A stretch of DNA of 64,000 nucleotides, from assembly GCA_963807375.1 (NCBI GenBank), contig CAWEBP010000002.1:265856-329855 (forward strand), read 5' to 3'. The DNA comes from an uncultured Gammaproteobacteria bacterium. Lineage in GTDB: Bacteria > Pseudomonadota > Gammaproteobacteria > Nevskiales > Nevskiaceae. A program made the position numbers and the translations under genes. Position 1 is the stretch's first letter. Each line of letters begins with the position of its first letter. Shown piece after piece: positions 11,602 through 63,679 of the stretch. The notes below the pieces were generated by a model. That model was not told the DNA's origin. It ran no database searches and saw nothing but the letters and a program-made list of their open reading frames with translations.

Positions 11602-11724
11602 CCACCCGCTTAACGCCTGCGAAGGCGGTTATAGCCGCATTTAGAAAAAACAATGGTACGGATTTAGTACCACCGTTTTAATCGGAAAAGCCGTCAAAGG
11701 GTGAAAAAATCCACCCAGCGGGTG
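11602..11724. repeat. 123-bp intergenic element, copy A
   Basis: CCACCCGCTTAA ... TGGTAC-GGATTTA-GTACCACC ... CCCAGCGGGTG. The core lies 53 nt from each end. Located between the ABC-2 permease stop (11729) and the ibaG start. Confidence 0.85.
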
Positions 11725-11728
11725 CAGG

Positions 11729-12503
11729 TCAATTCCGCATCCGGTAGCCGGTCACCAGCATCCACAGGCAGACGCTGGATGCCGCCACGAAGAAACCGCC
11801 GACACCACAGCAGGCTGATGCCGATCGGCGCGTCGGCCACGCCGAAGAAGCCGTAGCGGAAGCCGTCGATCATGTAGAAGAACGGGTTCAGGTGCGAAGC
11901 CTCGAACCAGAACTCCGGCAGCGAGTGCACCGAGTAGAACACGCCGGACAGGAACGACAGCGGCGTGATGAAGAAATTGGTGAACGCGGCCAGGTGGTCG
12001 AATTTCTGCGCGACAATGCCGGCGATCAGCCCGAAGACCGCGAGGCTGCCGCCGGCCAGCAGGAACATCGCCAGCAGCGCGCCGATGGCGCATGCAGCGG
12101 CAAGGGCACGAACGGCAGCGTCACCGCCAGCATGGCGACCGCCACGATGGCGCGCGCACCAGGGCCGCGCAGAACGTAGGCGGCAAACCATTCGAACGCG
12201 CCCGAGCGGCGCCATCAGCAGGAACACGAGGTTGCCCATGACCTTGGACTGGATCAGCGAGGAGCTGGTGTTGGCGAACGCGTTCTGGATGATGGTCATC
12301 ATCACCAGGCCCGGCACCAGGAATTCGGTGTAGCTGACGCCGTCGTAGACCGCGGCGCGGCCCTGCATCGCCTGCGCGAACACCAGCAGGTACAGCAGCG
12401 CGGTGATCACCGGCGCGGTGACGGTCTGGCCCAGCACGGCCCAGAAGCGCATGACTTCTTTCTTCAGCAGGGTGAAGAAACCCGAGCCTGTGTTGTGCGA
12501 ATC
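11729..12503 (-). pseudogene. ABC-2 type transporter permease (YadH-like), frameshifted; 5' boundary approximate
   Basis: FFTLLKKEVMRFWAVLGQTV..NPFFYMIDGFRYGFFGV. The true C-terminus VGGFFVAASSVCLWMLVTGYRMRN-stop (TGA at 11729-11731) is in a different frame from track ORF 11694-12605. An Arg-rich out-of-frame stretch in the middle indicates further indels. Confidence 0.75.
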
Positions 12504-13402
12504 ACGGGTCAGCTCCACAAAGATGTCTTCCAGCGTCGGCTCACGCGTCTGGATGTCTTCGACGGCACACGCCCGCGGCGCGCAAGGCTTCGAGGACGGC
12601 GCCAATCGGGTGGGTGTGCGTGGGCAGCTTCAGTTCCACCAGCGCCGTTCTTTTCGCTGACCTGCAGCGCCTGCAGCGCTAGAAGGCAGGCCCCGGAACC
12701 CAGCCGCAGGCTCAGGAAGCGAAACGGATGGCGTGCGATCAGGTCGCGCGTCGTCTCCAGGGCCTGCAGCTCGCCGTGATCGAGAATCGCGATGCGCTCG
12801 CACAGGTCCTGCGCCTCTTCCAGATAGTGCGTCGTCAGCACCACGGTCGTGCCGCCGGCATGCAGTTCGCGCATGAAGCTCCACAGCGTGCGGCGCAGCT
12901 CCACGTCCACGCCCGCGGTCGGCTCGTCGAGGATCACCACCGGCGGCTTGTGCACCAGCGCCTGCGCGATCAGCACGCGGCGCTTCATGCCGCCCGACAG
13001 GGTGCGCATCATCGCTTTGCGCTTGTCGGCCAGTTCGAGCTGCTCGAGCAGGTGGTCGATCCACGGCCAGGACGCCTTGCCGCAGCCGTAGTAGCCGGCC
13101 TGGATGCGCAGCATTTCGGCGACCTTGAAGAACGGGTCGAACACCAGCTCCTGCGGCACCACGCCGATGTTCTTGCGCGCCGAGCGCCAGTCGCGCACCG
13201 TGTCGTGGCCGAGCACGGTGATCCCGCCCGCGTCCAGCCGGATCAGGCCGGCGATGAGATTGATCAGCGTGGATTTGCCGGCGCCATTGGGCCCGAGCAG
13301 GCCGAAGAACTCGCCGCGGCGAATGGAAAAATCCACGCCGTCCAGCGCCAGGGTTTTGCCGTAGGATTTGCGGACGCCTGTAATTTCTATCGCTGCATTC
13401 AT
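12504..13402 (-). pseudogene. ABC transporter ATP-binding protein (YadG-like), 3' part frameshifted; 3' boundary approximate
   Basis: Walker A GPNGAGKST, signature LSGGMKRR, Walker B VVILDEPTAGVD. The C-terminal EDIQTREPTLEDIFVELT lies in the frame of ORF 11694-12605, not of ORF 12509-13402. Confidence 0.8.
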
Positions 13403-13419
13403 TCAGCGGCGAATTCTAA

Positions 13420-14550
13420 TTGAAGACCCACCGACCAATACACAAACAGTTTGCCGCCGATGCGCTGACCGAGATTTTTGCGCTCAAACGCCCGGCGGAT
13501 GCGATCTTGCAGGACCTGTTTCGCAGCAAAAAGCAGATGGGGGGCAAGGACCGCGCCGCCGTCAGCACGATGGTTTACGGCGTGCTGCGCAATATCTTCG
13601 TGCTGAGGTCTCAAGGCGGCAATGCGGCGCCGGAGCTGATTGAAGCACTGCTCAGCGAGGAGCCGCCGGGGGACTCCCTCCCCGTCCACGTCAAGCTCAA
13701 TCTGCCGGATTGGCTCTACGACTCGCTCGTGCGCCAGCACGGCGAGGCTCAAACCGCACCCCTGGCGTTGGCCCTGAATCAACCCGGCACGGTTGATTTG
13801 CGCGTGAATACACTCAAGGCCACGCGCGAGCAGGTGATTGCCGCGCTCGCGCAGGCACAGATTCCTGCGGCCCCAACGCCCCGCTCGCCCGTGGGCGTGA
13901 GATTACTCAAACGCGGGGCGTTGCAAGCCACCGCCGCATTTCGCGAGGGCTGGATCGAGCCACAGGACGAAGGCAGCCAGTTGCTCGCCTTGCATGTGGA
14001 CGCCAAACCCGGCGAAACCGTGGTGGATTTCTGCGCCGGCGGTGGCGGCAAAACGCTGGCGCTGGCGGCGCAGATGCAGAATCGAGGCGCGCTCTACGCC
14101 TGCGACACGCGCCGCACCAGTCTCGAAAAGCTGCGGTTGCGCGCACTCCGTGCAGGCGCGCCGATCGCCGACCTGCTGACGCTGCGCGACGCCCACGACC
14201 CGGCACTCAAACGGTTGCACGAAAAAGCCGACGCCGTCCTGGTAGATGCACCGTGTACCGGCAGCGGCACGCTGCGGCGCAATCCGGAACGCCGCTTGCA
14301 GGCCCCCGACCTTGCCGCGCTCACCGCGCTGCAAGTCACCATTCTCGAAGGCGCCAGCCGCTTGCTGAACAAGAACGGCCGGCTGATCTACGCCACCTGC
14401 AGCCTGCTGCGGGAAGAAAACGAGGAAGTGATCGAGCGATTTTTGAAAAAGCATCCCGGTTTCGCCGCCGCTCCGCAGCCCCTGCAACTGCTGCCGCACC
14501 GCGACGGCACCGATGGTTTTTTCGCCCACACCCTTACAATACGTCGGTGA
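13420..14550 (+). CDS. RsmB/NOP-family SAM-dependent RNA (cytosine-C5) methyltransferase
   Basis: 376 aa (TTG start). FCAGGGGKT, DAPCTGSGTLRRNPE, LIYATCSLLREENEEV. Confidence 0.8.
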   Translation: MKTHRPIHKQFAADALTEIFALKRPADAILQDLFRSKKQMGGKDRAAVSTMVYGVLRNIFVLRSQGGNAAPELIEALLSEEPPGDSLPVHVKLNLPDWLYDSLVRQHGEAQTAPLALALNQPGTVDLRVNTLKATREQVIAALAQAQIPAAPTPRSPVGVRLLKRGALQATAAFREGWIEPQDEGSQLLALHVDAKPGETVVDFCAGGGGKTLALAAQMQNRGALYACDTRRTSLEKLRLRALRAGAPIADLLTLRDAHDPALKRLHEKADAVLVDAPCTGSGTLRRNPERRLQAPDLAALTALQVTILEGASRLLNKNGRLIYATCSLLREENEEVIERFLKKHPGFAAAPQPLQLLPHRDGTDGFFAHTLTIRR

Positions 14551-15521
14551 ATCAAAAATCCCTGCTGGCCTCTGGCCGCCGCACGCTCGAAATCGAGCGC
14601 GATGCGCTCAGTGCGCTGCTGCCCCGCGTCAATGCCGACTTTGCGCGCGCCTGCGAATTGCTGCTCAAGTGCGCAGGCCGCGTCATCGTCATCGGCATGG
14701 GCAAGAGCGGACATGTCGGCGGCAAGATCGCGGCCACCCTGGCCTCGACCGGCACGCCGGCGTTTTTCGTGCACCCGGGCGAGGCTTCGCACGGCGACCT
14801 CGGCATGGTCACGCGCGGCGACGCGGTGATCGCGCTATCGAATTCCGGCGAAACGCCCGAGGTACTGACGATCCTGCCGCTGATCAAGCGCATGGGCGTG
14901 CCGCTGGTGTCACTGACGGGCAAGCCCGGCTCGACGCTGGCCAAGGCCGCCGATGTTCATCTGGATGTTTCGGTGCCGCTCGAAGCCTGTCCGCTCAATC
15001 TCGCACCGACCGCGAGCACCACCGCGACGCTGGCGATGGGCGATGCGCTGGCGGTGGCCCTGCTCGAAGCGCGCGGCTTTTCGCCGAGAAGATTTCGCGC
15101 TGACCCACCCGGGCGGCACACTGGGCAAGCGCCTGCTGCTGAAGAGTCGGCGACCTCATGCACCTGGGCCACCGGATCCCCAAAGTCTCCGCGCCGACGC
15201 CCCTGATGCAGGCGTTGCTGGAGATGACGCGCAAGGGCCTTGGCATGACCGCGATCGTCGACGCCAACGACAAAGTGCTCGGCGTCTACACCGACGGCGA
15301 CCTGCGCCGTACGCTCGATCAGGGCGTGGATGTGCGCAAGGCCAGAATCCGCGACGTCATGACTCGCGGCGGCAAGACCGCTGCGCGCCGACCAGCTCGC
15401 CGCCGAGGCGGTGCAGGTGATGGAAAAACACAAGATCACCGCGCTGCTGGTCACCGACGCCAAAGGAAAACTCGCGGGGGTGATCCACATGCACGACCTG
15501 ATGCGCGCGGGGGTCGTTTGA
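14547..15521 (+). pseudogene. kdsD: arabinose-5-phosphate isomerase (KdsD/KpsF), frameshifted
   Basis: SIS domain VIVIGMGKSGHVGGKIAATLASTGTPAFFVHP..ISNSGET, then HPGGTLGKRLL and CBS pair ..ITALLVTDAKGKLAGVIHMHDLMRAGVV-stop in other frames (ORFs 14253-15206, 14953-15420, 15158-15787). The GTG overlaps the upstream TGA. Confidence 0.85.
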
Positions 15522-16033
15522 AATCGCAGAAGCTCGGCGCCGCGGCGCTTCGCCAGCGCGCGCAAGAAGATCCGCTGCCTGTTTCTCGACATCGACGGCG
15601 TGATGACCGACTGCAAGCTCTACTTGACGCCCGACGGCGAAGAACTCAAGGCGGTCAACGTCAAGGACGGCTTCGGCATCAAGATGCTGATGAAAGCCGG
15701 CGTCGAAGTCGCCGTGATCTCGCGGCCGGCCGTCGGTGGCGATGCAAAAACGCCTCGCCGATCTGGGCGTGCGCCATGTCTATCTGAACACCGAAGAGAA
15801 GATGCCCGCGTACGAGGCCGTGCGCAAGACGCTCGGGCTGCGTCGACGAGCAATGCGCGCACATGGGCGACGACGTGCCGGACCTGCCGTTGTTTGCCTG
15901 CGTGGGCCTGGCACTCACGGTGGCCGACGCCCACCCCACGGCCAAGGCGGCAGTGCATTGGGTCAGCCAGTATCGTGGCGGCGACGGTGCGATTCGCGAG
16001 GCGGCTGACCTGATCCTGGCCAGCCAGTCATGA
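15518..16033 (+). pseudogene. kdsC: KDO 8-phosphate phosphatase, frameshifted
   Basis: [33 protein letters not shown] / [12 protein letters not shown] / [20 protein letters not shown], spread over ORFs 15158-15787, 15600-16013 and 15736-16008. Confidence 0.8.
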
Positions 16034-16587
16034 AGCGACAGGCCGTTTGGCTGATTCCGCTGGGACTGATCGTCGCCCTGGGCCTGTGGCTCGCGCGCCA
16101 GCCTGAATCACCGGCAGCAGAAACCATCGCTTCGCGGCCGGCCTCGGTGCCGCGCTATGCGCTGACCGGCGTCAACTGGCTGCGCTATGACAGCAAGGGC
16201 AAGCCGCAATTCCGCGCGCAGGCGGCGCAGATCGATTTCTACGACGACACTTCTGCCAAGTTGCAGACATTGAGCCTCGACGCGCTCGGCGGACTCGATT
16301 CGCCGTGGCGTTTCAATGCGCCTTCGGGATACCTGCCGCCGCGCCAGAAGCGCCTGCGGCTCGATGGCCCGGTCGCCGGCCAAGGGCGGATGGCAAACGG
16401 CGACACCGTGCAATTGTCCGCCGGACACCTGTGGGTGGACTCCGCACGGCGTGAAATTTCCACCGATGCGGGCGTGAAGGTCGAAGCGCCGCGGCGCCAG
16501 GCCCAGGCGCAGGGATTGCGCACCGATTTCGGTGCCAAGCGCATTGAATTGCGCGGCAAGGTGCAGGCCCGCTATGCGCCAAAGTAA
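16030..16587 (+). CDS. lptC: LPS export system protein LptC
   Basis: 185 aa with an N-terminal membrane anchor. Position between kdsC and lptA. ATGA overlap with the kdsC stop. Confidence 0.75.
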
Positions 16588-17143
16588 TTTTCTGCTGTTC
16601 CTGATGATCCTCGCGGCGCCGGCCGGCGCGGCCGACCTGGTGCAGAAGTTTCTCGGCGAACAGGCGCAAAAACCCATGACCCTGTCGGCGGATCGCGCCG
16701 AATGGCGCAATGACGGCGTGATGGTGTACGAAGGCGGGGTACAGCTGGTTTCGGGGAGCTTGAGCCTGAATGGCAGCCGGGTCGAGGTGCGCCAGATGTT
16801 GGCGGGCCAGTATCAGGCGCAGGTGCTGGGTGAGCCGGCACGGATGACCCACGCCGCCCAGAGCTCGTCGCCGGAAGTCACCGCGCAATCCAACACCCTG
16901 TTCCTGGATTCAAAAGCCGGCGTCGTGGAACTGAGCGGCGACGCGCAACTGCTGCGCGGGGCCGAATCGCTGAGCGGCGACAACATCAAGTACGACCTCA
17001 ACGGCCGCCGGATCCGCGCGGCCGCCAAAGCCGGCGCCGGCCGCGTGCGCATGGAACTGCCCGGGTCGGTGATCGCCCCGTTGCCGCAACCGGCCAGCAG
17101 GGATGGCAGACGCCGCAGCCGGCGGCAAGACCCCGGAGTCCCC

Positions 17144-17147
<4 letters not shown>
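16574..17147 (+). pseudogene. lptA: LPS transport periplasmic protein LptA; 3' end frameshifted, so the track ORF runs on into lptB
   Basis: Signal peptide [20 protein letters not shown]. OstA-like repeats (LSADRAEW.., VYEGGVQL.., [10 protein letters not shown]). A frame change near 17105 restores ..[16 protein letters not shown], which overlaps the lptB ATG (ATGA at 17144-17147). Confidence 0.75.
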
Positions 17148-17877
<730 letters not shown>

Positions 17878-17891
17878 ATCGGCGCAGTTTG

Positions 17892-17942
17892 TTGACGCCG
17901 ATTTATGGACCGATTCCGGGCGGGCGCAGCGCGCATCGGGAT
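17892..17942. repeat. GC-rich companion hairpin repeat, copy 2
   Basis: TTGACGCCGATTTATGGACCGATTCCGGGCGGGCGCAGCGCGCATCGGGAT, just after the lptB stop. Separated from element copy B by a 52-nt insert. Confidence 0.7.
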
Positions 17943-17994
17943 TCCAACCGCCATAGATGAGGGTAGTACCGCGAGAGGCAGGATGCCGTAACAA

Positions 17995-18118
17995 CCACCC
18001 GCTTGAGGCGTTTTTTGGCCTCAAAACACCGGATTCGAAAAAATCATCGGTACACTTTTAGTACCACTGTTTTTAGTAGGCGGGCTCACAGCACTCCAAA
18101 AACACCACAAGCGGGTGC
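17995..18118. repeat. 123-bp intergenic element, copy B (124 bp)
   Basis: CCACCCGCTTGA ... CGGTAC-ACTTTTA-GTACCAC ... CAAGCGGGTGC. Between lptB and rpoN. Confidence 0.85.
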
Positions 18119-18205
18119 CACAAAAAAACAGCCTTCGTAATTAACATGCAATTTTCATACCGGCGTACACTAATCGTCCAATAGCCACGCAGGCTTTCAA
18201 AGGCA

Positions 18206-27896: not shown

Positions 27897-28019
27897 CCAC
27901 CCGCTTGACTATACTTTCGGCCTTAAAACGGCCTTCGCGCTAAATCAGTGGTACTAAAAGTGTACCACCCGATTTTCGCTGCTGGCTTAAATCGGCCCAA
28001 AAGGGCTCAAGGCGGGTGG
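27897..28019. repeat. 123-bp intergenic element, copy C
   Basis: CCACCCGCTTGA ... GTGGTAC-TAAAAGT-GTACCACC ... TCAAGGCGGGTGG. In the adk/phosphofructokinase divergent spacer, ending 9 nt before the ATG at 28029. Confidence 0.85.
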
Positions 28020-33288: not shown

Positions 33289-33303
33289 GTCGTACGTTTC
33301 AAC

Positions 33304-33336
33304 AAAAAGGCCCCGTTTCGGGGCCTTTTTTGTTTC
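33304..33336 (+). terminator. rho-independent terminator after hppA
   Basis: aaaaaGGCCCCG-ttt-CGGGGCC followed by TTTTTTGTTT. Confidence 0.8.
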
Positions 33337-33462
33337 TACGCCCGGAACGCACTGGAATACCGGGCTAAAAATCCGGGTTACACTCACCGCATAAGCTGGC
33401 AGCAATGAGGTGACTGTAAACCTCGTGCGATTCGGCAAAAAAAAGTCCTGGGAAGAGCGTCC

Positions 33463-34611
33463 TTGTCCAAGCAAAGAGCCGTGGCGTTGACTCGCCGTTT
33501 TGCGGTCGTTGCCGTGTCGTGCGCGCTATTACTTAGTGGCTGCTTTGAGGATGGTCGCCCCTCCTTACCAATTCCGGGTCCGGACCCGACTCCGAACCCC
33601 GATCCAGCTCCGATACCTGCAAGGCCGCAGTTCGAAACAGCACTGGACGTGGTTGAGGCCGCCACCTTCGTCACGGGCGCTTTGGATGTAATTACCGGCG
33701 GCGCGCCGGCATCGACAAAGTCGGTGGCAACCAAGTCGAAGTCCGGAAGCTTGCCGTCTGTGTCCAGTAAAGCCGGCGAAGCCACCGCTTGCGGCATGGG
33801 CGGGCAGATAAGTGCAAGTGATCAATTCACCAGCACACCCCAATCGCCTTACTACCAACGCCCGTTTACCGCGAATCAAGTTCAGTTTGATGACTGTCAG
33901 ATGCGCGCCCAGGCCGAATCCACGGGCACCCTTTACAAATTCACCCGTACGGGCACCTTCGAAGAAGGCAACTCGCCCAATGACGAGGCCTCAAAAACCA
34001 ACCAGGCCACCTCCCGCGCCTCGTATCTTTCCAACGCCACCCCCGACCAGATAACGATTCAAACCATCGGCGTCACGCCACAGCGTACGCTGCATAAAGT
34101 CACCCGCAGTTTCATCGAACATTCTCAGCAACCGCCCGTTTTCAAGATCGGTCGGGGGTCCAGCGAAAGCCAAAGGGTCTCAACAACCTATTACGAATCC
34201 AGTGTGGATGGCAATGCGGCGGCCACCAAGCGTGGCGCTGTTCAGGTCGGCACGACAGCGCAGCCTTTCATTTATTCGGACAACGCCTATTACGGACTGC
34301 GTCTGCACGGCGGCATGTCCATGGTTCTGCCCGACCGCCCGCAGTGCGCGCAGGGCCCGATCCTGGTGGAGACCCCGGTTCCGATTTCGTACAGCGATCT
34401 TTTTAGCGAGAAACTGCAAAAAGGCACTCTGCGCCTGACGCTGGACAAAGTCGTGGCCGAAGTGGAACTGCTGCCCGATGGCGGCCAGCGCATTCATTTA
34501 AATGGCGTGACCACCGACGTCTCGGCTGCGCAGGTCAAAAGCATCAGCACCGACTGCGGCTTCTGGCTGGAGCCTGATTTCCTGGTCTGTGACGACGCAT
34601 GCACCCTATAA
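33463..34611 (+). CDS. hypothetical lipoprotein, no recognisable domain
   Basis: 382-aa ORF (TTG start, GTG alternative at 33481). Lipobox LLLSG-C followed by a Pro-rich linker PIPGPDPTPNPDPAPIP. More A/T-rich than the flanking genes. Confidence 0.6.
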   Translation: MSKQRAVALTRRFAVVAVSCALLLSGCFEDGRPSLPIPGPDPTPNPDPAPIPARPQFETALDVVEAATFVTGALDVITGGAPASTKSVATKSKSGSLPSVSSKAGEATACGMGGQISASDQFTSTPQSPYYQRPFTANQVQFDDCQMRAQAESTGTLYKFTRTGTFEEGNSPNDEASKTNQATSRASYLSNATPDQITIQTIGVTPQRTLHKVTRSFIEHSQQPPVFKIGRGSSESQRVSTTYYESSVDGNAAATKRGAVQVGTTAQPFIYSDNAYYGLRLHGGMSMVLPDRPQCAQGPILVETPVPISYSDLFSEKLQKGTLRLTLDKVVAEVELLPDGGQRIHLNGVTTDVSAAQVKSISTDCGFWLEPDFLVCDDACTL

Positions 34612-34652
34612 CCGGCGCAATGCACGCAAGGGCGCGCATTCGAATCAAGCGG

Positions 34653-35866
34653 ATGGCCGCTCTCCTGATTCCGCTTGTTTTATTGCAAAGTTGCGTCGCC
34701 AAGAACGATCCGGCGGCCACAATCGATTTGCTGGCATTGACGAGCAGCATTTCCGAGCCACCCCCGCCCCCGACCGCTCCACCGCTGCCCGATTTACCGC
34801 CACCGCCAGCGCCCGCCTCCGTGGAAAACCGCCTCGGAGCAGGGGTGGTGGTGCTCGATCCGAACGAAGCCGCAAACGTGGAGGAAGTGGATTACCGAAC
34901 GATCCGGTTCAAGCGCAACGACGGTAAGTACGCCGACCTCAAGAAAGGCTCCATAGTCAGGCTACCGTCAAAAAAAGCCATCGTGCTGGAACAAGTTGAT
35001 GCCGAGGGCGCTGGTTGGATTGCGGAATTCCGGCCCGCCGAACTCACCGAGGCGCTGGGGTCCGCGACCATCGACTTTTCGATTCCGGTAAGGAGAAAAG
35101 GCAGCACCAACGAGCCGATCAAGACCGGGCGGCAGGAAAAGACCTTTACCGGGCCGGGCAACAGCAGTGTCTTGTTAGCCGCGCAAGCCGAGGTGAGCGG
35201 CGTGATCAAGGTTCACCTGCAGCTGGAAAACTGTGACATCCAGCGCGACGGCTGCCTCAAGTATCTGAGCGTGCTTTACGAATTCGACAACCCAGCCGAG
35301 ATCGAAATCAGCGCCAGCGCCTCGGTCAGGCACGAATGGGAGCCGATTGAAATTTTTAAGCACGAGTTGGATCTGGGGGGGCCTTCAATCGACTTGGGAA
35401 TCCTTCATCTACGTTCAACCCAATTTTGATTATTCGATTGCCCCTTTTATTGAAGTAGGCGCGGCGGTTTCGCTATGAAGGTCAGGCGTGATTTCGCGGG
35501 CACGGTGGGCTATGTCTACAGCCGCGGTCAATGGGTGGGAGTGGATCACACAGCAGTGGCCATCAAGCACAAGACACTGCCAGAGCTGACCGACAAGTTG
35601 CTAATGGGTACCGCAAATACACCGAGCTGATTTTTCAGGCCGAAGTCAGCTGTTTATTTTCAGTGCCAATACCGTTCTTTGATTTAGTAAGGTTTTCGAG
35701 GAAACCGTAGGCTTATCGGTACTGGTGAATACCGGGCGTTGACGTACCGTTCAATCCCGGGCCGGTGTCGTTTCGGGTACTGGCACCGATAAAACGAATT
35801 ATGTCGAGCGTTTCGCGGCAGGAAAGCTCTGCGGTGCCGGCACCCCCTGCATGACGCAGCCCTGAC
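34653..35866 (+). pseudogene. hypothetical lipoprotein; the 3' half (35380-35866) is readable only by switching frames
   Basis: Lipobox LVLLQS-C and a Pro-rich linker (track ORF 34599-35429). After the G7 run at 35375-35381, coding-looking stretches continue in other frames (TWESFIYVQPNFDYSIAPFIEVGAAV; DFAGTVGYVYSRGQWVGVDHTAVAIK; KYTELIFQAEVS; ..NYVERFAAGKLCGAGTPCMTQP-stop at about 35866). Confidence 0.5.
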
Positions 35867-35930
35867 ACCGCTACCAATCTTTAAGAGATCAGCAGGCCCA
35901 GATGCGGGGCTTTATGTTTTTTGAAAATGA

Positions 35931-36054
35931 TCACACCCGCTCAGGCCACTTTTTTGGACCGTTTTTGTGTAATGACAACAATGGTGGTACACATTTAGTA
36001 CCACCGCCGAAACCAAAACACGCGTTTCAGACGAAAAATGAGCTTAAGCGGGTG
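35931..36054. repeat. 123-bp intergenic element, copy D (124 bp)
   Basis: CACACCCGCTCA ... GGTGGTAC-ACATTTA-GTACCACC ... TTAAGCGGGTGC. Confidence 0.85.
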
Positions 36055-36149
36055 CCATGTTTTGGGGTGATTTCAACACCTGACCACGAGTCCCCAACAC
36101 CGAGATAGACCTCAAGCGCGTTGTGCGGCGGCTATAGTGCAAACGCACC

Positions 36150-46814: not shown

Positions 46815-46937
46815 CTACCCGCTTAGTGCACTTTTTTGCATTCCAGCAGTTCCACTCGAAAAGCAGTGGTACTAAATATGTACCACCGTTTATTACGGCT
46901 GCCGTCATTCTGCCTCCGCAGGCCCTCAAGCGGGTGC
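46815..46937. repeat. 123-bp intergenic element, copy E
   Basis: CTACCCGCTTAG ... GTGGTAC-TAAATAT-GTACCACC ... TCAAGCGGGTGC. Begins 7 nt upstream of the sulfatase ATG (46807). Confidence 0.85.
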
Positions 46938-50858: not shown

Positions 50859-52902
50859 ATGCTTGCGCCACTTCCCGATTTCCGGTCACTGAACCCCGCC
50901 GACGTCGCCTCGCGACTGGACGCGGTGCTCGCCCAGAACCGCGCCGAGCTGAAGGCATTGCTCACGCAAAAAAGCCATTCCTGGGAAACTCTGATTGAGC
51001 CGCTGGAGGACATGGGCGAGCGCCTGACGCGCGTCTGGGGCCCGGTGTCGCACCTGTTCGGGGTATGGAGCACGCCCGAGTGGCGCGCGGCCTACAACGC
51101 GGGGCTGCCCAAAGTCACTGAATACTCGGTCGAGGTTTCGCAGAACGAAGACTTGTTCCGCGCCTACGAATCGCTGTCGAAAAGCACCGCGTTTGCCGGC
51201 TACTCGCCGGCGCGCAAGAAAGTCGTGAACGACGCGCTGCGCGACTTCAAGCTGTCCGGCATCGCGCTGCCGCCCGCAGAGAAGGCCCGCTACAAGGAAA
51301 TTTCGCTGCGCCTGTCCGAATTGCAGTCGAAGTTTGAAGAAAACCTGATGGACTGCACCCAGGCTTGGTCGAAGCTCGTGACTCACGAGCCGGAGCTTGC
51401 GGGCATGACCGAAGCGGCAAAAACCGCGGCGCGCGAAAAGGCCAAGGCGAAAAACCTCGGCGGCTCGCGTGACGGCGTCCCTGCCGGCTCGCCGCACTCG
51501 GGCGTCCTGTCCATCGAGGGTTGGCTGCTGACGCTCGACTTTCCCAGCTACGACGCGGTCATCAGCAAATCAAGCAACCGCGAACTGCGACGCGAGCTGT
51601 ACGAGGCATATTCCACGCGCGCTTCCGACACCGGTCCGCATGAGCGCAAATTCGATAACAGCGCCCTGATGTCGGAAATTCTCGCGCTGCGCTTTGAGCT
51701 GGCGCGGCTGCTGGGCTTTGGCAGCTTCAGCGAACTGTCGCTCGCCACCAAGATGGCCGACACACCCGCCGAAGTGGACACTTTTCTGCGCGAACTGGCG
51801 CATAAGGCGCGGCCGCGCGCAAAAGCCGAACTCGCGGAACTGCGCATCTAGCCAGGCCGACCTGCAAGCCTGGGACTTGCCCTACTACGCGGAAAAGCTA
51901 CGCGAAAAGACGCTCGGGTTGTCGGACGAAATGCTGCGCCCGTATTTTCCCTTTCCGCAGGTGCTGCGCGGCATGTTCGATCTGGTGCAGCGGCTTTATG
52001 ACGTGCGCATCGAAGCCGTGGGCGGCATCGCCACATGGCACGACGACGTCACCACCTATGCACTTAAACACGCCGACGGTGAAACCTTTGGCCTGTTTTA
52101 TCTGGATCCCTACGCACGGCCCCAGACAAAACGCGGCGGCGCGTGGATGGACGAATGTCTCGGCCGGCGACGCACGGTTTCCGGAACGCAGTCTCCGGTC
52201 GCCTACCTTGTCTGCAATTTCACCCCGCCCGCATCCGGTGAACCCGCGCTGCTCACGCACGACGAAGTGCTGACCCTGTTCCACGAATTCGGCCATGGCC
52301 TGCACCACCTGCTGACGCGCGTGGACGAATCCGCGGTGTCCGGCATCCGTGGCGTGGAATGGGATGCGGTCGAGCTGCCGAGCCAGTTCATGGAGAACTG
52401 GTGCTACGAACCGGACACGCTGAAACTTTTTGCGCGTCACTGGCAGACCGGCGCGCCGATGCCGGACGCCATGATCGAGCAGCTGCGCGCCGACCGGCAG
52501 TTTCAGTCCGGGCTGGCGACGTTGCGCCAGGTCGAGTTCTCGCTGTTCGATTTGCGCCTGCATAGCCAGGCCAAACCCGATGTGCGCCAGATTCTGAGTG
52601 AGGTGCGGCGCGAAGTCGCCGTGCTGCATCCGCCCGAATTCAACCGCATGCCCTGGAGTTTTTCGCACATCTTCGCCGGCGGTTACGCCGCCGGTTACTA
52701 CAGCTACAAATGGGCCGAAGTACTGTCGTCGGATGCGTTCGCCGCATTCGAGGAGACGAAATTCGCACCGGAAACCGGCGTGCGCTTTCGCGACACCATC
52801 CTCGCCGCCGGCGGTTCGCGGCCCGCGATGGAAAGCTTCATCGCATTTCGTGGCCGCAAGCCGCAGATCGAGCCGCTGCTGAGACATTCCGGGCTGCTGT
52901 AA
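50859..52902 (+). pseudogene. prlC: oligopeptidase A (M3 family), one frameshift near 51840
   Basis: ORF 50859-51851 carries the N-terminal half. ORF 51694-52902 carries DLQAWDLPYYAEKLRE.., zinc site LFHEFGHGLHH, and GGYAAGYYSYKWAEVL. Confidence 0.9.
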
Positions 52903-52937
52903 ACACCACCCGTAAGCCGCCAATCGGCGTTGTAGTT

Positions 52938-52986
52938 TTGCGCCGATTTGCCGACGGATCCCGGTCACACGCAGCGTGTAGTGGGC
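52938..52986. repeat. GC-rich companion hairpin repeat, copy 3
   Basis: TTTGCGCCGATTTGCCGACGGATCCCGGTCACACGCAGCGTGTAGTGGG. The inner stem ACACGC-A-GCGTGT replaces the GCGCGC-A-GCGCGC of copy 1. Abuts element copy F. Confidence 0.65.
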
Positions 52987-52987
52987 C

Positions 52988-53110
52988 CCACCCGCTTGGA
53001 CCCGATCAAAGCCGCATTCGATGGAAAATGAAAAAGAGACGGTACATTTTTAGTACCACCTGCTTTTCAGATAGAGCCCATCGAAGCCAGAAATGACCTC
53101 GAGCGGGTTT
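52988..53110. repeat. 123-bp intergenic element, copy F
   Basis: CCACCCGCTTGG ... CGGTAC-ATTTTTA-GTACCACC ... TCGAGCGGGTTT. Confidence 0.85.
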
Positions 53111-55665: not shown

Positions 55666-55667
55666 GG

Positions 55668-57278: not shown

Positions 57279-57319
57279 TGTTGTATTCCCCTTCGCCTTG
57301 TAATGCTAACTTAGGCCGC

Positions 57320-59110
57320 ATGAACAAGGCAGCGACACCGCCCGAACGAAGAATCAGCCTTACCGAGACGCTCGACGCGCTCACCACCGAAGGCTGGCTG
57401 ACGCGCGAGCAAGCCAACCTGCTGCGCGGCAAACATGCCAAAGATGCGCGCCACCCGATTGCGATCATCGCCGAAGCCGATTTGCCGCACGGCAAAGATC
57501 CGCACCGCAAGCTCACCGCCGAAGCATTGACCCAATGGCTGGCCAAACATGCCGACCTGCCGTACCTGAGGATTGACCCGTTGTCGATGGATGTCGCCGG
57601 CGTCACCGCGGTGATTCCCTACGCCTACGCCTCGCGCTTTGGCATTCTGCCGGTCAAGGTCACGCACGACCGAGGTCACCATCGCCACCGCCGAGCCGCA
57701 TCAGCGCGCTGTGGGAGAAAGATGTAGCCCAGGTGGCCAAGCGCGAGATCAAGCGCGTGATCGCCAACCCGCTCGACATCCAGCCGCTACCTGGTCGAGT
57801 TCTACGCGCTGGCCAAGCTCGGTCAAGGGCGCCAGCGAGTCGCACGGCGCAGCCCGCTGCCGGGCATGCAGAACCTCGAGCAGCTGATGGAGCTGGGCCG
57901 CGCCGGCAAGCTCGACGCCAACGACCAGCACGTCGTCGGCATCGTCGACTGGCTGCTGCAGTACGCCTTCGACCAGCGCGCCAGCGACATCCACCTCGAG
58001 CCGCGCCGCGAAGCTCGGCAACATCCGCTTCCGCATCGACGGCGTGCTGCACGACGTCTACCAGATGCCCGCCGCGGTGATCGTCGGCCGTCGATCAGCC
58101 GGCTCAAGATCCTGGCGCGCATGGACCTCGCCGAAAAGCGCCGCCCGCAGGACGGCCGCATCAAGACCCGGACGCCCGAGGGCAAGCGAGATCGAGCTGC
58201 GCGTGTCGACGCTGCCGACCGCGTTCGGCGAAAAGCTGGTGATGCGCATCTTCGACCCCGAAGTGCTGGTGCGCGATTTCGCCGCAGCTCGGGCTGTCGG
58301 CCGCCGACGCCGCGCAGCTGGCAGGAACATGATCCGCGAGCCGAACGGCATCATGCTGGTCACCGGCCCGACCGGCTCGCGGCAAGACCACCACGCTGTA
58401 CTCCACGCTCAAGCAGCTGGCCACGCCCGAGGTCAACGTCTGCACCATCGAAGACCCGATCGAGCTGGTCGAGCCGGCCTTCAACCAGATGCAGGTGCAG
58501 CCCAACATCGACCTCGAACTTTGCCGGCGGCGTGCGCGCGCTGCTGCGCCAGGATCCGGACATCATCATGGTCGGCGAGATCCGCGACCTCGAGACCGCC
58601 GAAATCGCGGTCCAGGCCGCGCTCACCGGCCACCTGGTGCTGTCGACGCTGCACACCAACGACGCGCCATCGGCACTGACGCGCCTGCTCGATCTTGGCG
58701 TGCCGGCTTACCTGATCAAGGCCACGGTTTTGGCGGTGATTGCACAAAGACTGGTGCGGCGGCTGTGCCCCAAGTGCAAACAAGCGGTCGAAATTTCCGA
58801 CGAGCGCTGGCGCGAAGTTATCGGCAGCTGGAAGATGGCCAAACCCAAGCACGCGTTTGAACCCAACGGTTGCCTCGACTGCCGCGAGACCGGCTACTTC
58901 GGCCGTGCCGGTCTCTATGAATTCATGACCGTCACCCCCGCGCTGCGCACGCAGTTGCAGGAGCAGCCGGATTCGCAATTGCTGCGCAAGTTTGCGTTGC
59001 AGGAGGGCATGATGCCGTTGCGCATTGCGGGCGCGCAGAAAATTGCCGAAGGGCTGACCTCGGTGGACGAGGTGCTGTCGTCTACGCCGCCGCCGGACGC
59101 CAGCGCGTAA
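57320..59110 (+). pseudogene. GspE/PilB-family secretion ATPase with an N-terminal T2SSE_N-like domain, multiple frameshifts about 57650-58520
   Basis: N-terminal [36 protein letters not shown]. Walker A GPTGS(G)KTTT, broken by an indel. [30 protein letters not shown]. Tetracysteine CPKC..CLDC. ORFs 57278-57727, 57866-59110 and others. Confidence 0.8.
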
Positions 59111-59180
59111 AGCTTGATCCGCCTGTTGGCGGGTAAGTCAAAGGCACGGCTTGCCGTCCGCCAGAAGCCCATAAAACACG

Positions 59181-59303
59181 CCACCCGCTTGGAGCCTCTA
59201 CAGGCTACTTCGAGCTTGACGTCAAAAAACAGTGGTACTAAAAGTGTACCACCGGTTTTTTGTTATCCGTTGTTTTAGGCCGTAAATGGCCCTAAGCGGG
59301 TAA
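59181..59303. repeat. 123-bp intergenic element, copy G
   Basis: CCACCCGCTTGG ... GTGGTAC-TAAAAGT-GTACCACC ... CTAAGCGGGTAA. Ends 6 nt before the stop codon of the minus-strand ORF 59310-59708. Confidence 0.85.
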
Positions 59304-59309
59304 TGCGGA

Positions 59310-59708
59310 TTAGGCGCCTGAGCGCACAAACGACAGCACCCGGCCACTGTCCTTTGAACTCCGATAACGCAATGTCTTGCCACGCACCTCAATGTAGGCC
59401 TTGTTTTTAAGATGCTCTACGACCTGGTCGGCTTGATCGCCCCTGCAACTTGGTCGGCCGTTGTGGTCCTGCAGCTGCTCGTCGAGAAGCCAGCCTTTTC
59501 CATCGCGCGTCAGTGACGCCGTGGTTGTGTAAACAAGCTCTCCGGTTGTTCTCACGATGTGACCGTCCGGCGTTATTTCGAATGTCATTGCGCAGGTCAC
59601 GCCCGCGGGCAAGGCCCAATGACCCATGGGAGGTGCAGCCGCACTTCCCGCCGATGCCAAGAATGGGTAAGTGAGAACACCGGCGCACAGCAAGCGAATA
59701 ATTTTCAT
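59310..59708 (-). CDS. hypothetical secreted protein
   Basis: 132-aa ORF with signal peptide MKIIRLLCAGVLTYPFLASA. No motif recognised. Confidence 0.5.
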   Translation of the reverse strand: MKIIRLLCAGVLTYPFLASAGSAAAPPMGHWALPAGVTCAMTFEITPDGHIVRTTGELVYTTTASLTRDGKGWLLDEQLQDHNGRPSCRGDQADQVVEHLKNKAYIEVRGKTLRYRSSKDSGRVLSFVRSGA

Positions 59709-59829
59709 GAAACCTTCTCCGTTTCGGTGATTGGGCTCTCGTGCGAATCAAACATCAAAAATGAGGCCTACTGGTTACTTCTTCGACAATGCCCAAAATT
59801 AATCTTCGGGTTGCGGCCGCGGGACGCAT

Positions 59830-60501
59830 TTAAACATCCGCCCACATCCGCAGCAGATTCGCGCGGATTTTTTGCAGTTGCAGCGCTTCGGGGGTGTCTT
59901 TGCCGCCGGGCGACAGGGCGCGGCGCACCGAGTTGATTTCGGCGAGCATCAGGCGTTTTTCGTGCTCGCGCACCATGCTCTGGATCCAGGTCACCACGGC
60001 GGTGCGCACGCCGCGCGTGACCGGCTCGACGCGGTGGATGGTCGTGGCCGGGTACAGCACCAGGCTTCCGCGCGGCAGCTTGACGCGCTGTGCGCCGATC
60101 TCGCTGCTGACCACCAGCTCGCCACCCTCGTAGCTCTCGGGCGCGGATAAAAACAGCGTCATCGCCAGGTCGGTGCGCACCGCAAACGGGCCCTGCATCA
60201 CCGGGCGGTCGATGTGGTCACCGTAGGCCATGCCCGGCTCATAGCGGTTAACCAGCGGCGGCATGATGCGCAGCGGCAGCGCAAAGGTGCTGAAGCCGTC
60301 GTTGCGCAGTACCGCCGCGAGCACCAGCTTGCGGATTTCCTCAATTTCTTTGCCTTCGGTTTTGGCCTGCTGGTTGTTCTTGGCCCGCGCGGCCGCGCCG
60401 TGGGCGGTGCTGCGGCCATCGACGAATTCAACTTGAGCGACCAGCGCATCGAGCGTGGCCAGTTCGGCCGCTTGGAGTACGTTCTGGATGGTGACGATCA
60501 T
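59830..60501 (-). CDS. Fe(II)/2-oxoglutarate-dependent PKHD-type hydroxylase (PiuC/YbiX-like)
   Basis: MIVTIQNVL..EFVDGRSTAHG.., HxD in YGDHID, YPATTIHRVEPVTRG.R. The longest ORF starts two codons earlier (60507). Confidence 0.85.
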   Translation of the reverse strand: MIVTIQNVLQAAELATLDALVAQVEFVDGRSTAHGAAARAKNNQQAKTEGKEIEEIRKLVLAAVLRNDGFSTFALPLRIMPPLVNRYEPGMAYGDHIDRPVMQGPFAVRTDLAMTLFLSAPESYEGGELVVSSEIGAQRVKLPRGSLVLYPATTIHRVEPVTRGVRTAVVTWIQSMVREHEKRLMLAEINSVRRALSPGGKDTPEALQLQKIRANLLRMWADV

Positions 60502-60540
60502 GGGCACTACTTTAGTTCAAGACCGGTGTACGATTAAGCG

Positions 60541-61188
60541 ATGTTCAAGTCGCCAAAAATCATCCAGAAGCCCACGTATAGCCCGGTGGCGGTGGCCAAT
60601 GAATTCGTCTCGTTGGCCTCAATCGACCGCATCGCGGACCTCAATCCGGCCAAACTGCATGCGCTGGTGTATCTGGCACATGGCTGGCATCTGGGCATCG
60701 AAGGCCATCCGCTGCTGAACGGCCGGGTGTCGGCATGGCGCGACGGCGTGTTTGTCAGCGAACTGCGCGAGGCCGGTTGCTGGGGCACCAAACGCGTCGA
60801 AAAACCCATCAGCATGGTCAGTATGGACGACAAGCGCGGCCTCATGGTCGAGCAAACGCCGCGGCTGCCGCTGCGCAGCAATGACGTGAAAACCATCGGC
60901 GCGGTCTGGAAACTGTACGGACGCCTGCCGTCGTTTGACCTGGTGCGCGTCACCAAGGAAGTCGCCTCGCCATGGGACCTGATCTGGAACGACGAAGAGC
61001 GGCCCGACGACGAGCCCAAGGTCATACCCAACGCGACGATGAAGCTGTTTTTCCGCGAGCTGGCCAGCAAGCGCCGCAGCAAAATCGGCGGCATCACCGA
61101 AACGTTGCGTTTGCACCCCACCGCAGGCATTGACCAGACCCAGCCGATTCTGGAAGTCCCCGACCCCGACCGTTTGCGCGCGGTTTAG
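60541..61188 (+). CDS. Panacea (DUF4065, SocA/GepA-like) domain protein with a C-terminal extension
   Basis: 215 aa. YSPVAVANEFVSLA..LNPAKLHALVYLAHGWHLGIEGHPLLNGRVSAWRDG fits the DUF4065 pattern (LqKLlYyaqgw.L...g.pLf.e.feAW.yGP). Confidence 0.6.
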   Translation: MFKSPKIIQKPTYSPVAVANEFVSLASIDRIADLNPAKLHALVYLAHGWHLGIEGHPLLNGRVSAWRDGVFVSELREAGCWGTKRVEKPISMVSMDDKRGLMVEQTPRLPLRSNDVKTIGAVWKLYGRLPSFDLVRVTKEVASPWDLIWNDEERPDDEPKVIPNATMKLFFRELASKRRSKIGGITETLRLHPTAGIDQTQPILEVPDPDRLRAV

Positions 61189-61202
61189 CGCCTGCTGCGG
61201 CC

Positions 61203-62114
61203 TCAGCCTTGCGGGCCGATGGCGACATTTAATTTTCCGTCGGCTGCACACCACGCGCGGTACATCGCGCGCGAATTAAACGGCAATGCCAGATTGCCGG
61301 CGCGGTCCACCGCAATGCAGCCGCCACGGCCCTGATAACTCTTTACTTCCAGCAAGCCCTCTTCGCACGCGCTCAGCAGATCGGATCCAGCGCTGACGCG
61401 CGCATGCAACGCAAAACCAAACCCGGCGCGGATAAAGCTCTCGCCGGTGCCGGTGCACGACACCGCCGCGCTGCGGTCATCGGCAAAAGTCCCGGCGCCG
61501 ATGATCGGTGTGTCGCCGATGCGGCCCGGATGCTTGTTGGTGAGCCCGCCGGTGCTGGTGGCCGCGGCGAGGTGGCCCTTGGCATCGCGCGCCACCGCGC
61601 CGACGGTGCCAAACGCCGAATCGTGGTCCAGCACGATGACGCCTTTCTTGTGCGCTTCTTTGAGCTGGTGGAAGCGCTCCTCGGTGATGAAGTAGTCGGG
61701 CGTGACTTCCGCCAAGCCCAGTTCGCGTCCCAGGCTCTCCGCGCCCGCGCCCATGAACAGGACATGCGGCGAGCGCTCCATCACCGCCCGTGCGAGCTGC
61801 ACCGGGCTTTTGATGCGCGCAACGCCGGCAACTGCCCCGCAGGCGCGATTGATGCCGCTCATGATGGCGGCGTCGAGCTCCGGCTGGCCCTCGCGGTTGA
61901 GTACCGCACCGATACCGGCGTTGAACAGCGGGCATTCTTCCAGCCGCATCACCGCGTGCTCAACGGCATCGAGTGCGGATGCGCCTTCGCGCAGGCGCGT
62001 CATCATCTGCTCGCCAATGCGCTGCAGCGCTTCGCGGTGCATGGGCTGCGCGCCCGCCGCCGGATCAAGGTCGCCGGCGCCGCCGTGGATCGCAAAACGA
62101 ATTTTTTCACTCAT
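61203..62114 (-). CDS. isoaspartyl peptidase / L-asparaginase (Ntn-hydrolase, asparaginase 2 family)
   Basis: 303 aa. FAIHGGAG, autoproteolytic site DSAFGTVGAVARD, STGG, GTGE. Confidence 0.9.
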   Translation of the reverse strand: MSEKIRFAIHGGAGDLDPAAGAQPMHREALQRIGEQMMTRLREGASALDAVEHAVMRLEECPLFNAGIGAVLNREGQPELDAAIMSGINRACGAVAGVARIKSPVQLARAVMERSPHVLFMGAGAESLGRELGLAEVTPDYFITEERFHQLKEAHKKGVIVLDHDSAFGTVGAVARDAKGHLAAATSTGGLTNKHPGRIGDTPIIGAGTFADDRSAAVSCTGTGESFIRAGFGFALHARVSAGSDLLSACEEGLLEVKSYQGRGGCIAVDRAGNLALPFNSRAMYRAWCAADGKLNVAIGPQG

Positions 62115-62137
62115 TGGCGAAGTCTACAATCTGTGGC

Positions 62138-63568
62138 GTGAATCTCGTCCTGGCCTGCATCCTCGCCTACATCGTCTCGCAGCTGGCGGTGGCATTCTGG
62201 GTTTCGCACCGCAATCGCAACGAGGAGGACTACCTGCTCGCCGGCCGCTCGCTCGGGCCGTGGCTGGCCACCTTCTCGGTGTTTGCCACCTGGTTTGGTG
62301 CCGAAACCTGCATCGGCGCCGCCGGCGAGGCGTACCAGCACGGCTTGTCCGGAGTCATTGCCGATCCGTTTGGCTACACACTCGGCATTGTGTTCATGGG
62401 CCTGTTTTTTGCAGCCACCTTGTGGAAACGTGGCCTGGTCACCCTCGCCGATCTGTTCCAGCAACGCTACAGCCTTGGCGTCGCACGGCTGGCGGCCCTG
62501 ATCATGATCCCCGGTTCGGTGCTGTGGGCCGCGGCGCAGGTTCGCGCCTTTGGCCAGGTGCTGTCCTCGGCCAGCGAGCTGGGCCTGCTCGCGGCAATCA
62601 CGCTCGCGGCGGTGGTTGTCATTATTTACACCGCCGTTGGCGGCATGTGGGCCAACGCGACCACCGACCTGATCCAGGGCATCGTGCTGGCGACTGGCGT
62701 GTTCGGATTGTTTGCGGTTTTTGTCTGGCTCGGCGGCCTCGACACGCTGGCGAACTTGCCGCCGGCAAAAACCGACGTGCTGCATGACCGCACGATCTGG
62801 GATGCGCTCGACACGCTGGCGATCCCGATTTTTTCAACCATTGCCGCGCAAGAACTGGTGGCGCGCGTGCTGTCGATGCGCGGCGTGCGGCTGGCGCGCA
62901 ATGCCACCGTCGGCGCTGGCCTGCTGTACCTGCTCATCGGCAGCGTACCGGTGATGATCGGCCTTGGCGCGGCCTCCTTTATCGGCGCGGGCCGCGACCA
63001 CGAACAGGTGCTGGCGCTGTTCGCGCAGCAGCAACTGCCCCTGCCGCTCTACATCCTTTTTTTAAGCGCACTGGTGTCGGCGATTTTGTCCACGCTTGCG
63101 GGCGCCCTGCTGGTGGCCGCCTCGCTGGCCGCGCACAACCTCTATGCCCCAATGCGGCCGCACCTTGGCGAAACCGAAAAAATCACCGCGAGCCGCTGGG
63201 CCGTGGTTCTGTTCGGCGTGGCGGCCTATGGCATTGCGCTGGCCAGCGAGAGCGTTTACTCACTGGTGCAAGAGGCCGCAGGCCTGGGCTCTGCCGGCAT
63301 TCTGGTGCTGATGGTCTTTGCGCTCTGGGGCAAGCAAACGGGCAGCAACGCCAGCGGTTATGCGGCGTTGATCGCCGGCACCGGGACTTATGTCATCGCC
63401 AAGCACGTGTATGGATTTGAACAGCCGTACCTGTTGTCGCTGGCGGCGGCATTGGCCGCGTATCTGGCGTTGGCTTGGGCACGGGTGACAGCCGGAAACA
63501 CCCGGTCAGGCTCGATACCGATACCCGAAAAAACACCTGCACCGGCAAAAGCCCCGCCACCCGCTTGA
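62138..63568 (+). CDS. sodium:solute symporter family transporter
   Basis: GTG at 62138 gives VNLVLACILAYIVSQLAVAFWVS...DYLLAGRSLGPWLATFSVFATWFGAETCIGAAG. About 13 TM segments. The longer ORF from 61973 is antisense to the asparaginase gene. Confidence 0.85.
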   Translation: MNLVLACILAYIVSQLAVAFWVSHRNRNEEDYLLAGRSLGPWLATFSVFATWFGAETCIGAAGEAYQHGLSGVIADPFGYTLGIVFMGLFFAATLWKRGLVTLADLFQQRYSLGVARLAALIMIPGSVLWAAAQVRAFGQVLSSASELGLLAAITLAAVVVIIYTAVGGMWANATTDLIQGIVLATGVFGLFAVFVWLGGLDTLANLPPAKTDVLHDRTIWDALDTLAIPIFSTIAAQELVARVLSMRGVRLARNATVGAGLLYLLIGSVPVMIGLGAASFIGAGRDHEQVLALFAQQQLPLPLYILFLSALVSAILSTLAGALLVAASLAAHNLYAPMRPHLGETEKITASRWAVVLFGVAAYGIALASESVYSLVQEAAGLGSAGILVLMVFALWGKQTGSNASGYAALIAGTGTYVIAKHVYGFEQPYLLSLAAALAAYLALAWARVTAGNTRSGSIPIPEKTPAPAKAPPPA

Positions 63569-63679
63569 GTTGATTTTTGGCCTGAAACGGCCGGTACAAA
63601 AAAATGAGTGGTACACTTTTAGTACCATCGCATTTTGGGTGAAGGTCAAAAACGCTTTATTTGTACCCCAAGCGGGTGG
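63557..63679. repeat. 123-bp intergenic element, copy H
   Basis: CCACCCGCTTGA ... GTGGTAC-ACTTTTA-GTACCAT ... CCAAGCGGGTGG. The left terminus supplies the last codons and the TGA stop (63566-63568) of the symporter. Confidence 0.85.

Follow-up and report, generated by a model that had tools for sequence, protein, structure and literature searches.

A previously undescribed family of palindromic intergenic repeats, with conserved termini and core, in an uncultured Nevskiales-related lineage

Introduction

What is the 123-bp sequence that recurs between the genes of an uncultured Nevskiaceae bacterium: inserted DNA, a folded RNA, or a site kept by its host? The question is raised by a 64,000-nt stretch of assembly GCA_963807375.1 (contig CAWEBP010000002.1, positions 265,856 to 329,855, forward strand; hereafter the window), in which an original prediction, made from the letters alone, had noticed eight dispersed copies of a palindromic element and had called the element unrecognised and MITE-like, with a structured RNA or a protein-binding module as alternatives. 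Here we describe this element, the A element, in the window and in related genomes and metagenomes. We find that A is a previously undescribed family among bacterial palindromic intergenic repeats, outside any named family. We lean, with moderate confidence, to the reading that A is an old, non-autonomous palindromic repeat family of one lineage, of the REPIN, BIME or MITE kind, which acts at the level of DNA and is inserted by a protein or complex encoded elsewhere. Beyond the original prediction, we find an orientation of the element, a ninth copy, a neighbouring repeat of ~84 nt (module B), exact spacing combined with near-random interiors, and termini that are specific to lineages.

Results

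Nine copies of the A element in the window

Motif counts establish that the A element recurs in the window far above chance. The central palindrome GGTAC-N7-GTACC was observed eight times (0.01 expected), and the terminal pair ACCCGCT-N(95-115)-AGCGGGT was observed seven times (0 expected), one copy, c3, falling outside the latter count solely through its right end, GGCGGGT. Each exact occurrence of CACCCGCTT in the window lies inside an A copy. The eight predicted copies, with the predicted termini and core, are borne out, and a repeat search combined with an nhmmer profile adds a degenerate ninth copy and finds no further copy in the 64 kb. The nine copies, eight intact and one degenerate, are named c0 to c8:

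5818-5936, minus strand: c0, degenerate A copy, reading TTCCCGC / GATAC-GAAAAGT-GTACC / GCGGGTT; found by repeat search and nhmmer (E=1.8e-20)
11602-11724, plus strand: c1, with loop GGATTTA, between the stop of an ABC-2 permease gene and the start of ibaG
17995-18118, plus strand: c2, within the lptB-rpoN spacer
27897-28019, minus strand: c3, between the divergent genes adk and pfk, ending 9 nt ahead of the pfk ATG
35931-36054, plus strand: c4, found by motif and nhmmer profile
46815-46937, minus strand: c5, between the stop of a DUF1329 gene and the start of a sulfatase gene
52988-53110, plus strand: c6, between convergent genes
59181-59303, minus strand: c7, between convergent genes
63557-63679, plus strand: c8, between convergent genes, its left terminus holding the stop of the symporter open reading frame (ORF) 61973-63568

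The claim that all copies lie between genes holds nearly throughout, the exceptions being c8, which holds the symporter stop, and c0, the right arm of which forms the first 12 codons of a gene for an HxlR-type regulator (5533-5853, minus strand; HxlR domain). The gene context of the nine copies is mixed (three convergent, three tandem, two divergent and one not classed), and copies are not oriented in any constant way relative to the genes beside them. The terminal motif GCTTGA gives the symporter ORF its TGA stop (63557-63568), and mechanically called ORFs run into elements at 63557-63568 and at 11694-11730; gene callers may therefore mis-set gene ends at A repeats.

Three conserved motifs at exact spacing, with near-random interiors

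The set collected for comparison comprises 23 A copies: the nine of the window; two from the metagenome-assembled genome (MAG) H32-bin039_1 (L003 and L004; loci outside the window carry L numbers); those of a metagenome scan, on one ENA contig (L010) and seven JGI 3300019487 contigs, three of which carry a second copy; and one from L009. A second L009 copy and one L026 copy came later. The 22-copy alignment holds the canonical copies, L009 being left out. Recurrence of the family in independent JGI, ENA and NCBI assemblies excludes an assembly artefact.

The alignment shows three islands of conservation. Pairwise identity is 85-88% in the termini and 84% in the core, and 35-39% in the interiors, for which random sequence would give 25%. 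All intact copies have the inverted termini (G)CCACCCGCTTGA...TCAAGCGGGTGG(C), 10-12 bp long; terminal motif and core are separated by 50 nt in 40 of the 44 arms, and the predicted position of the core, 53-54 nt from each end of the element, is confirmed. The core encloses a 7-nt loop, AYNTTTA, mostly ACTTTTA, that makes the element asymmetric and so gives it an orientation: plus in c1, c2, c4, c6 and c8, and minus in c0, c3, c5 and c7. Common to both arms is a loose template, GCCACCCGCTTGAGGCC-TTTT-GGCCT-AAAAC-GGCC...AAAAAC-GGT, and an A/T-rich patch lies 8-12 nt beyond each terminus, the same strand being the A-rich one in both patches. The interiors of paralogous copies reach an identity of 0.58 at best, with a mean of 0.37. 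The pattern of conservation is unusually clean: three motifs, exact spacing, and free drift between them. This tripartite pattern points to the cis-requirements of a putative DNA-handling protein.

Insertion, sharing and decay of copies in relatives

Comparison with relatives establishes that A copies can be inserted DNA. L018 (GCA_964364465.1) is collinear with positions 1-21,702 of the window at ~80% identity, and the 8.4-15.4 kb part of the window has collinear counterparts in L019 and L020 (~85% identity). The c1 site is empty in L018, in L019/L020 and in L027, a more distant relative, and there the permease gene and ibaG overlap by ATGA; in the window, the same two genes are separated by ~226 bp, corresponding to c1 plus B. 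Since the ATGA overlap is seen in three related genomes, we conclude that c1 was cleanly inserted. Differences among the window, L026 and L018 are also found in the lptB-rpoN spacer. The window has B, then 44 nt, then A (c2); L026 has a lone A copy in the opposite orientation; and L018 has a relic, alignable to the L026 copy, in which the 20-nt core is lost and the termini are mutated. The identity of c2 to the L026 copy, 0.69, is not above the family background (orthologs with a flipped core were considered). The filled and empty sites by which MITEs are recognised were found, then, at c1 and c2.

Other copies are shared. Copy c0 is common to the window and L018 and decays in both at about the background rate. 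Copy c3 is common to the window and L017, where the flanks are 85.5% identical and the interior is 73% identical, with motifs intact; at the c3 site of L009 there is a copy with the same core and different termini. Copy density differs sharply among relatives: nine copies in the 64 kb of the window vs. one decayed relic in 42.7 kb of L018 and L021 (both from an H32-type genome). The original prediction put the genome at hundreds of copies if the density of the window were representative; the density in these close relatives is far lower. Judged from these comparisons, the A family is probably old, shared or decayed across relatives, and restricted to one lineage.

Synteny with relatives (L022, L021 and L009) breaks at c2 and c7. 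In L022, rpoN adjoins the pilus ATPase gene; the two are 40 kb apart in the window, where the ATPase gene stands beside c7.

The same core with other termini in a sister lineage

L009 represents a sister lineage: its RpoN is 73% identical to that of the window, and its flanks are ~75% identical. In addition to the copy at the c3 site, L009 has a second copy, upstream of rpoN. Both L009 copies have the core GGYAC-TAAAAGT-GTACC and keep the 50-nt spacing, and both have termini GCGCATC...GATGCGC in place of CACCCGC...GCGGGTG. The same core with different ends indicates that the core is shared across lineages and that the termini are lineage-specific. Such a division would arise if the ends evolved together with a dedicated protein that reads them, for example a transposase or some other binder of DNA, and if the core answered to a conserved factor or function.

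The host range is narrow. Among the matches listed, the family was found only in the window genome, the JGI 3300019487 population, Hainich H32 MAGs, GCA_964539245.1 and one ERZ1739049 contig. A scan of a genome collection gave at least eight loci; six of the loci listed, from actinomycetes and a spirochaete, were matches by chance. No match to the A element was obtained in viral contigs or among plasmids and phages, and a literature search on the terminal motifs returned unrelated primers and aptamers only; together with the negative Rfam result given below, these searches agree with the original description of the family as unrecognised. Two neighbouring observations concern other sequences. 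At 7403-7990 of L008, a contig of a spirochaete MAG, nine GRTAC-N7-GTAYC palindromes ~63 nt apart resemble a tandem or CRISPR-like array and are unrelated to A. At ~1830-1900 of L004 (an H32 MAG), beside the A copy, there is on the reverse strand a tRNA-like sequence, …GTAGCTCAGTTGGATAGAGCAC…, recognised by eye.

An inserted repeat family or a host-maintained module

We infer from the tripartite anatomy that a protein or complex encoded in trans would recognise three points, the two termini of 10-12 bp and the central 5-7-5 palindrome, set 50 nt apart, and that the same complex would act as the enzyme that inserts copies into intergenic DNA. Because only the three motifs, their spacing and a loose pattern of A/T tracts and GGCC would be needed, interiors would be free to drift to near randomness. 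After insertion, the core with its A-run and T-run could serve as a bidirectional intrinsic terminator, and single copies may have taken on new roles, c0 by supplying the 5' coding end of hxlR and c3 by its place in the control region of adk and pfk. B would be a separate small hairpin module that lies beside the CCACCCGC terminus in one orientation.

Several results weigh against this reading. First, neither the window nor the fetched loci contain a transposase, RAYT or integrase linked to the A element. Second, flanking sequences show no consistent target-site duplication: the longest word shared by the two flanks averages 4.24 nt vs. 4.00 nt in mismatched pairs. The original prediction's impression that there is no obvious duplication holds statistically; a few copies do have A-rich direct repeats of 5-7 bp, 3-5 nt outside the termini (for example CCAAACC in L012_2859), at inconsistent distances. 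Third, there are no near-identical paralogous pairs among the 22 copies, so recent copying is not visible. Fourth, the motifs of c3 are intact in two lineages in spite of the 73% identity of the interior, which looks like selection in place rather than selfish persistence. Fifth, spread of B and A as one composite unit is ruled out by the similarity of B copies (64-86%) vs. that of the adjoining A interiors (28-41%). Sixth, the search pattern that retrieved the metagenome copies requires the motifs, making motif invariance there partly a matter of construction; the nhmmer scan of the window is free of this bias. Of the predicted MITE-like character, inserted DNA stands, on the evidence of the empty c1 site in three relatives; a consistent duplication, near-identical copies and an insertion sequence (IS) with the same ends were not found in the sequences compared.

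The strongest alternative is that A is a module maintained by the host: a dimeric protein would bind the core and a lineage-specific protein the termini, at a constant helical distance, forming a looped or wrapped insulator, terminator or nucleoid site between transcription units, with ancient copies kept by selection. This would explain the exact 50-nt spacing of motifs around near-random interiors, the lack of visible young paralogs, and the preponderance of intact copies, eight vs. one decayed, in the unbiased window scan. It would also explain why the c3 motifs are kept in place across 15% flank divergence (L017) and, for the core only, across 25% (L009), why the core is common to lineages whose termini differ, and why symmetry resides in the consensus and not in pairing within one molecule. 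However, c1 is a clean insertion between translationally coupled genes and is absent from three relatives; decay is unchecked in c0 and in the L018 relic; the syntenic DNA of close relatives has far fewer copies, and a site that the host needs should not be so dispensable; and orientation and gene context are mixed. We therefore regard a host-maintained module as rather unlikely.

A more specific proposal, which we consider doubtful, is that the copies are tripartite docking sites: a conserved factor would bind GGTAC-ACTTTTA-GTACC and a fast-evolving partner would bind the termini, the two forming a complex of fixed geometry that insulates, terminates or organises the chromosome. If this were true, the switch of termini in L009 would be the trace of a DNA-binding protein and hundreds of its sites in the genome evolving together.

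A DNA-level element rather than a folded RNA

The hypothesis that A is a structured element of a noncoding RNA or mRNA predicts a cloverleaf-like fold, in which a stem formed by the termini encloses the terminator hairpin and two arm hairpins and which would affect transcript stability or processing. Folding as such is in favour: every copy folds better than its shuffles (z -3.6 to -6.2). However, the palindromic consensus alone accounts for this folding, and the covariation that a selected fold should leave is not found. Complementarity between arms is 0.539 within the same element vs. 0.561 between different elements, and is not in excess. With a full-hairpin model, 61.7% of cells are paired vs. 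62.6% in column-preserving shuffles, and 74 cells are changed on both sides vs. 91 expected; the long-hairpin model, of REPIN type, is ruled out by these results. RNAalifold retains only the terminal and core stems, which are invariant in the family and hence uninformative. The hairpin at the start of the arms (TTGAGGCC/GGCCTCAA) shows a weak excess of covariation, with 54.0% vs. 50.7% paired (12/500 shuffles) and 30 vs. 19.1 double changes (4/500 shuffles), both, by the calibration of the test, within the range of unconstrained alignments; the cloverleaf with arm hairpins was dropped, support for it being weak and unconvincing. One copy, in L011, has a compensatory GATAC/GTATC variant of the core, and single-sided core changes are more numerous than this one case.

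Three further points oppose a folded transcript. First, Rfam gives no match at the gathering score, and a relaxed threshold of E<=5 brings no hit at any copy. Second, copies occur in both orientations relative to flanking genes. Third, an efficient terminator at the centre would stop transcription before the 3' half, without which the closing stem could not form. Exact spacing and conserved motifs, combined with no compensatory evolution, argue for recognition of double-stranded DNA by a protein and not for a folded transcript. We conclude that A is, as far as sequence comparison can tell, a DNA-level element and not a structured RNA, the latter being improbable and the RNA alternative of the original prediction having found no support in covariation.

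Least probable of all, and in our judgement very improbable, is that the copies are dispersed attP-like recombination sites, in which the tyrosine-recombinase core would be made of 7-bp arms around an asymmetric 7-nt spacer and the termini, ~55 bp off, would be arm-type sites, with A/T tracts bending the DNA: GTGGTAC-ACTTTTA-GTACCAC does have a conserved asymmetric spacer that orients the element, flanking inverted motifs do lie at a fixed distance, and synteny does break at c2 and c7, but neither the window nor the loci fetched contain an integrase, the first three spacer positions differ among copies, the L022 rearrangement is not the product expected of recombination between c2 and c7, and the likeness is one of anatomy, by analogy with lambda-type sites.

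The core resembles a bidirectional terminator

The core consists of a G+C-containing stem of 5-10 bp and a 7-nt loop, with an A-run before and a T-run after. By pattern match, the cores of c5-c8 score as intrinsic terminators, c6 and c7 on both strands and c5 and c8 on one strand, and c7 is the best terminator-like site in 45-64 kb. Such predicted terminator activity fits the position of three copies between convergent genes. In scoring on both strands, the core hairpin with its flanking A-run and T-run is like bidirectional intrinsic terminators; ordinary terminators, unlike A, have neither a conserved loop sequence nor, on both flanks, conserved inverted motifs at a distance of exactly 50 nt. 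Readings of the core as a sigma-54 promoter or as an IHF or Fis site gave a partial fit at best and were dropped.

A hairpin module, B, beside some copies

B is a module of ~84 nt with two strong hairpins, found on the 5' side of c1, c2, c6 and one L011 copy, in all cases in the same orientation relative to A. The window copies are as follows:

11526-11609, plus strand: B copy 1, preceded by CTACCCGT and ending in CCACCCGC, which is the left terminus of c1
17868-17951, plus strand: B copy 2, beginning at the lptB stop codon, 44 nt from c2
52913-52996, plus strand: B copy 3, diverged, preceded by CCACCCGT and ending in the CCACCCGC terminus of c6

A C(C/T)ACCCGT-like sequence stands ahead of B in three of the four cases, and the end of B is the CCACCCGC terminus of A. 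B copy 3 has two compensatory base-pair changes in hairpin 2. B is without a match in Rfam. Since B copies are far more alike than the A interiors beside them, B and A have separate histories, and B most likely enters next to an A terminus. The arrangement resembles the mosaic organisation of REP/BIME repeats: BIMEs occur in mosaic combinations with other hairpin modules, which B next to A recalls.

Comparison with known repeat families

The ERIC (IRU) elements of enterobacteria are imperfect palindromes of 127 bp with a conserved central inverted repeat, intergenic and in either orientation. A is likewise an imperfect palindrome, of near-equal length, with a central inverted repeat, intergenic location and both orientations; it differs from ERIC in sequence and in host group, a separation made by description. 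ERIC copies are highly similar throughout, whereas A copies share three motifs only.

The Correia (NEMIS) elements of Neisseria carry an IHF site in their middle. With these elements and with bacterial MITEs in general, A shares a short length (roughly 100-150 bp), a non-coding nature, terminal inverted repeats, a putative central functional site, intergenic insertion, putative effects on transcription and termination, and presence or absence between relatives. Unlike them, A has neither a TA nor any other consistent target duplication, and near-random interiors in place of copies about 90% alike; the flanks of A are not TA, and its termini have no evident match to the 26-bp terminal repeat of Correia elements. 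The window, ~250 kb of related loci, and plasmid and phage collections yielded no parent IS with A termini.

The closest known kind is the REPIN. REPINs have two highly conserved inverted ends and a less conserved spacer of fixed length, are extragenic and persist vertically (PMC3116915). A has such inverted ends and a constant spacer, and is REPIN-like also in its size (~100-120 bp), its extragenic location, its many copies, its vertical persistence and its confinement to one lineage. A differs from REPINs in four respects. First, A has a third, equally conserved motif, the central palindrome with its oriented loop. Second, A is without compensatory changes in its arms, which in REPINs are 'common'. 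Third, A has no abundant master sequence, every one of the 22 copies being unique. Fourth, no RAYT is linked to A in the loci compared. Such a link was considered through the only Y1 transposase seen, in L027 (GCA_016182805.1, which is without the A element), and was rejected: this transposase is flanked by unrelated GACCATGGGGTCA repeats, and its locus is without A copies. The L027 gene (17096-18570) encodes a 294-aa Y1 transposase of IS200 type, RAYT-like, and is flanked by many tandem GACCATGGGGTCA repeats and a repeated AAAAAGAAAGACCTGACCCC motif. The window has no Y1 transposase gene.

The host and the rest of the window

The window is ordinary chromosome of ~63% G+C, with murA, ibaG, lptB, rpoN, adk, pfk, prlC, a pilus ATPase gene and transporter genes among its genes. 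It contains no transposase gene, in accordance with the original prediction, and a tRNA/tmRNA scan of it found no gene. RpoN of the window is 64-65% identical to that of the named Nevskiales Stagnimonas, Nevskia, Solimonas and Stenotrophobium. MurA is 74-80% identical to that of named Nevskiales, and is much closer, at 92-93%, to that of a few MAGs and metagenome contigs, which places the host in an uncultured lineage of genus level within the Nevskiales. By these protein identities, the host of the A element is a new, uncultured Nevskiales-related genus.

Three further observations concern the window itself. First, prlC (oligopeptidase A) is present as two overlapping ORFs in different frames (50859-52902): ORF 50859-51851 corresponds to the N-terminal domains, and ORF 51694-52902 to residues 326-680. 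Second, the 3' end of the ABC-2 permease gene, near 11736-11800, is out of frame relative to orthologs. The split prlC and the out-of-frame permease end are either assembly indels or pseudogenes. Third, at 33300-36130 G+C is lower (0.48-0.60), in a region that stops at c4 and that includes ORFs 33409-34611 and 34593-35429, which have weak codon-position bias and no Pfam hit; this region may be foreign DNA.

Discussion

The results establish that a repeat with inverted termini, a central oriented palindrome and exact spacing recurs in one narrow group of bacteria, that it lacks RNA-type covariation, and that its copies are polymorphic for insertion, shared, or decaying among relatives. For the biology of these bacteria, the copies can be read as markers of probable terminators, operon borders and points where synteny breaks. 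The occurrence of the same core with other ends in a sister lineage provides a natural system for the co-evolution of repeat termini with their reader. The A element is not a new principle, lineage-specific palindromic repeats being common in bacteria; it adds a well-delimited repeat family from poorly studied Nevskiales-related bacteria of groundwater and other metagenomes.

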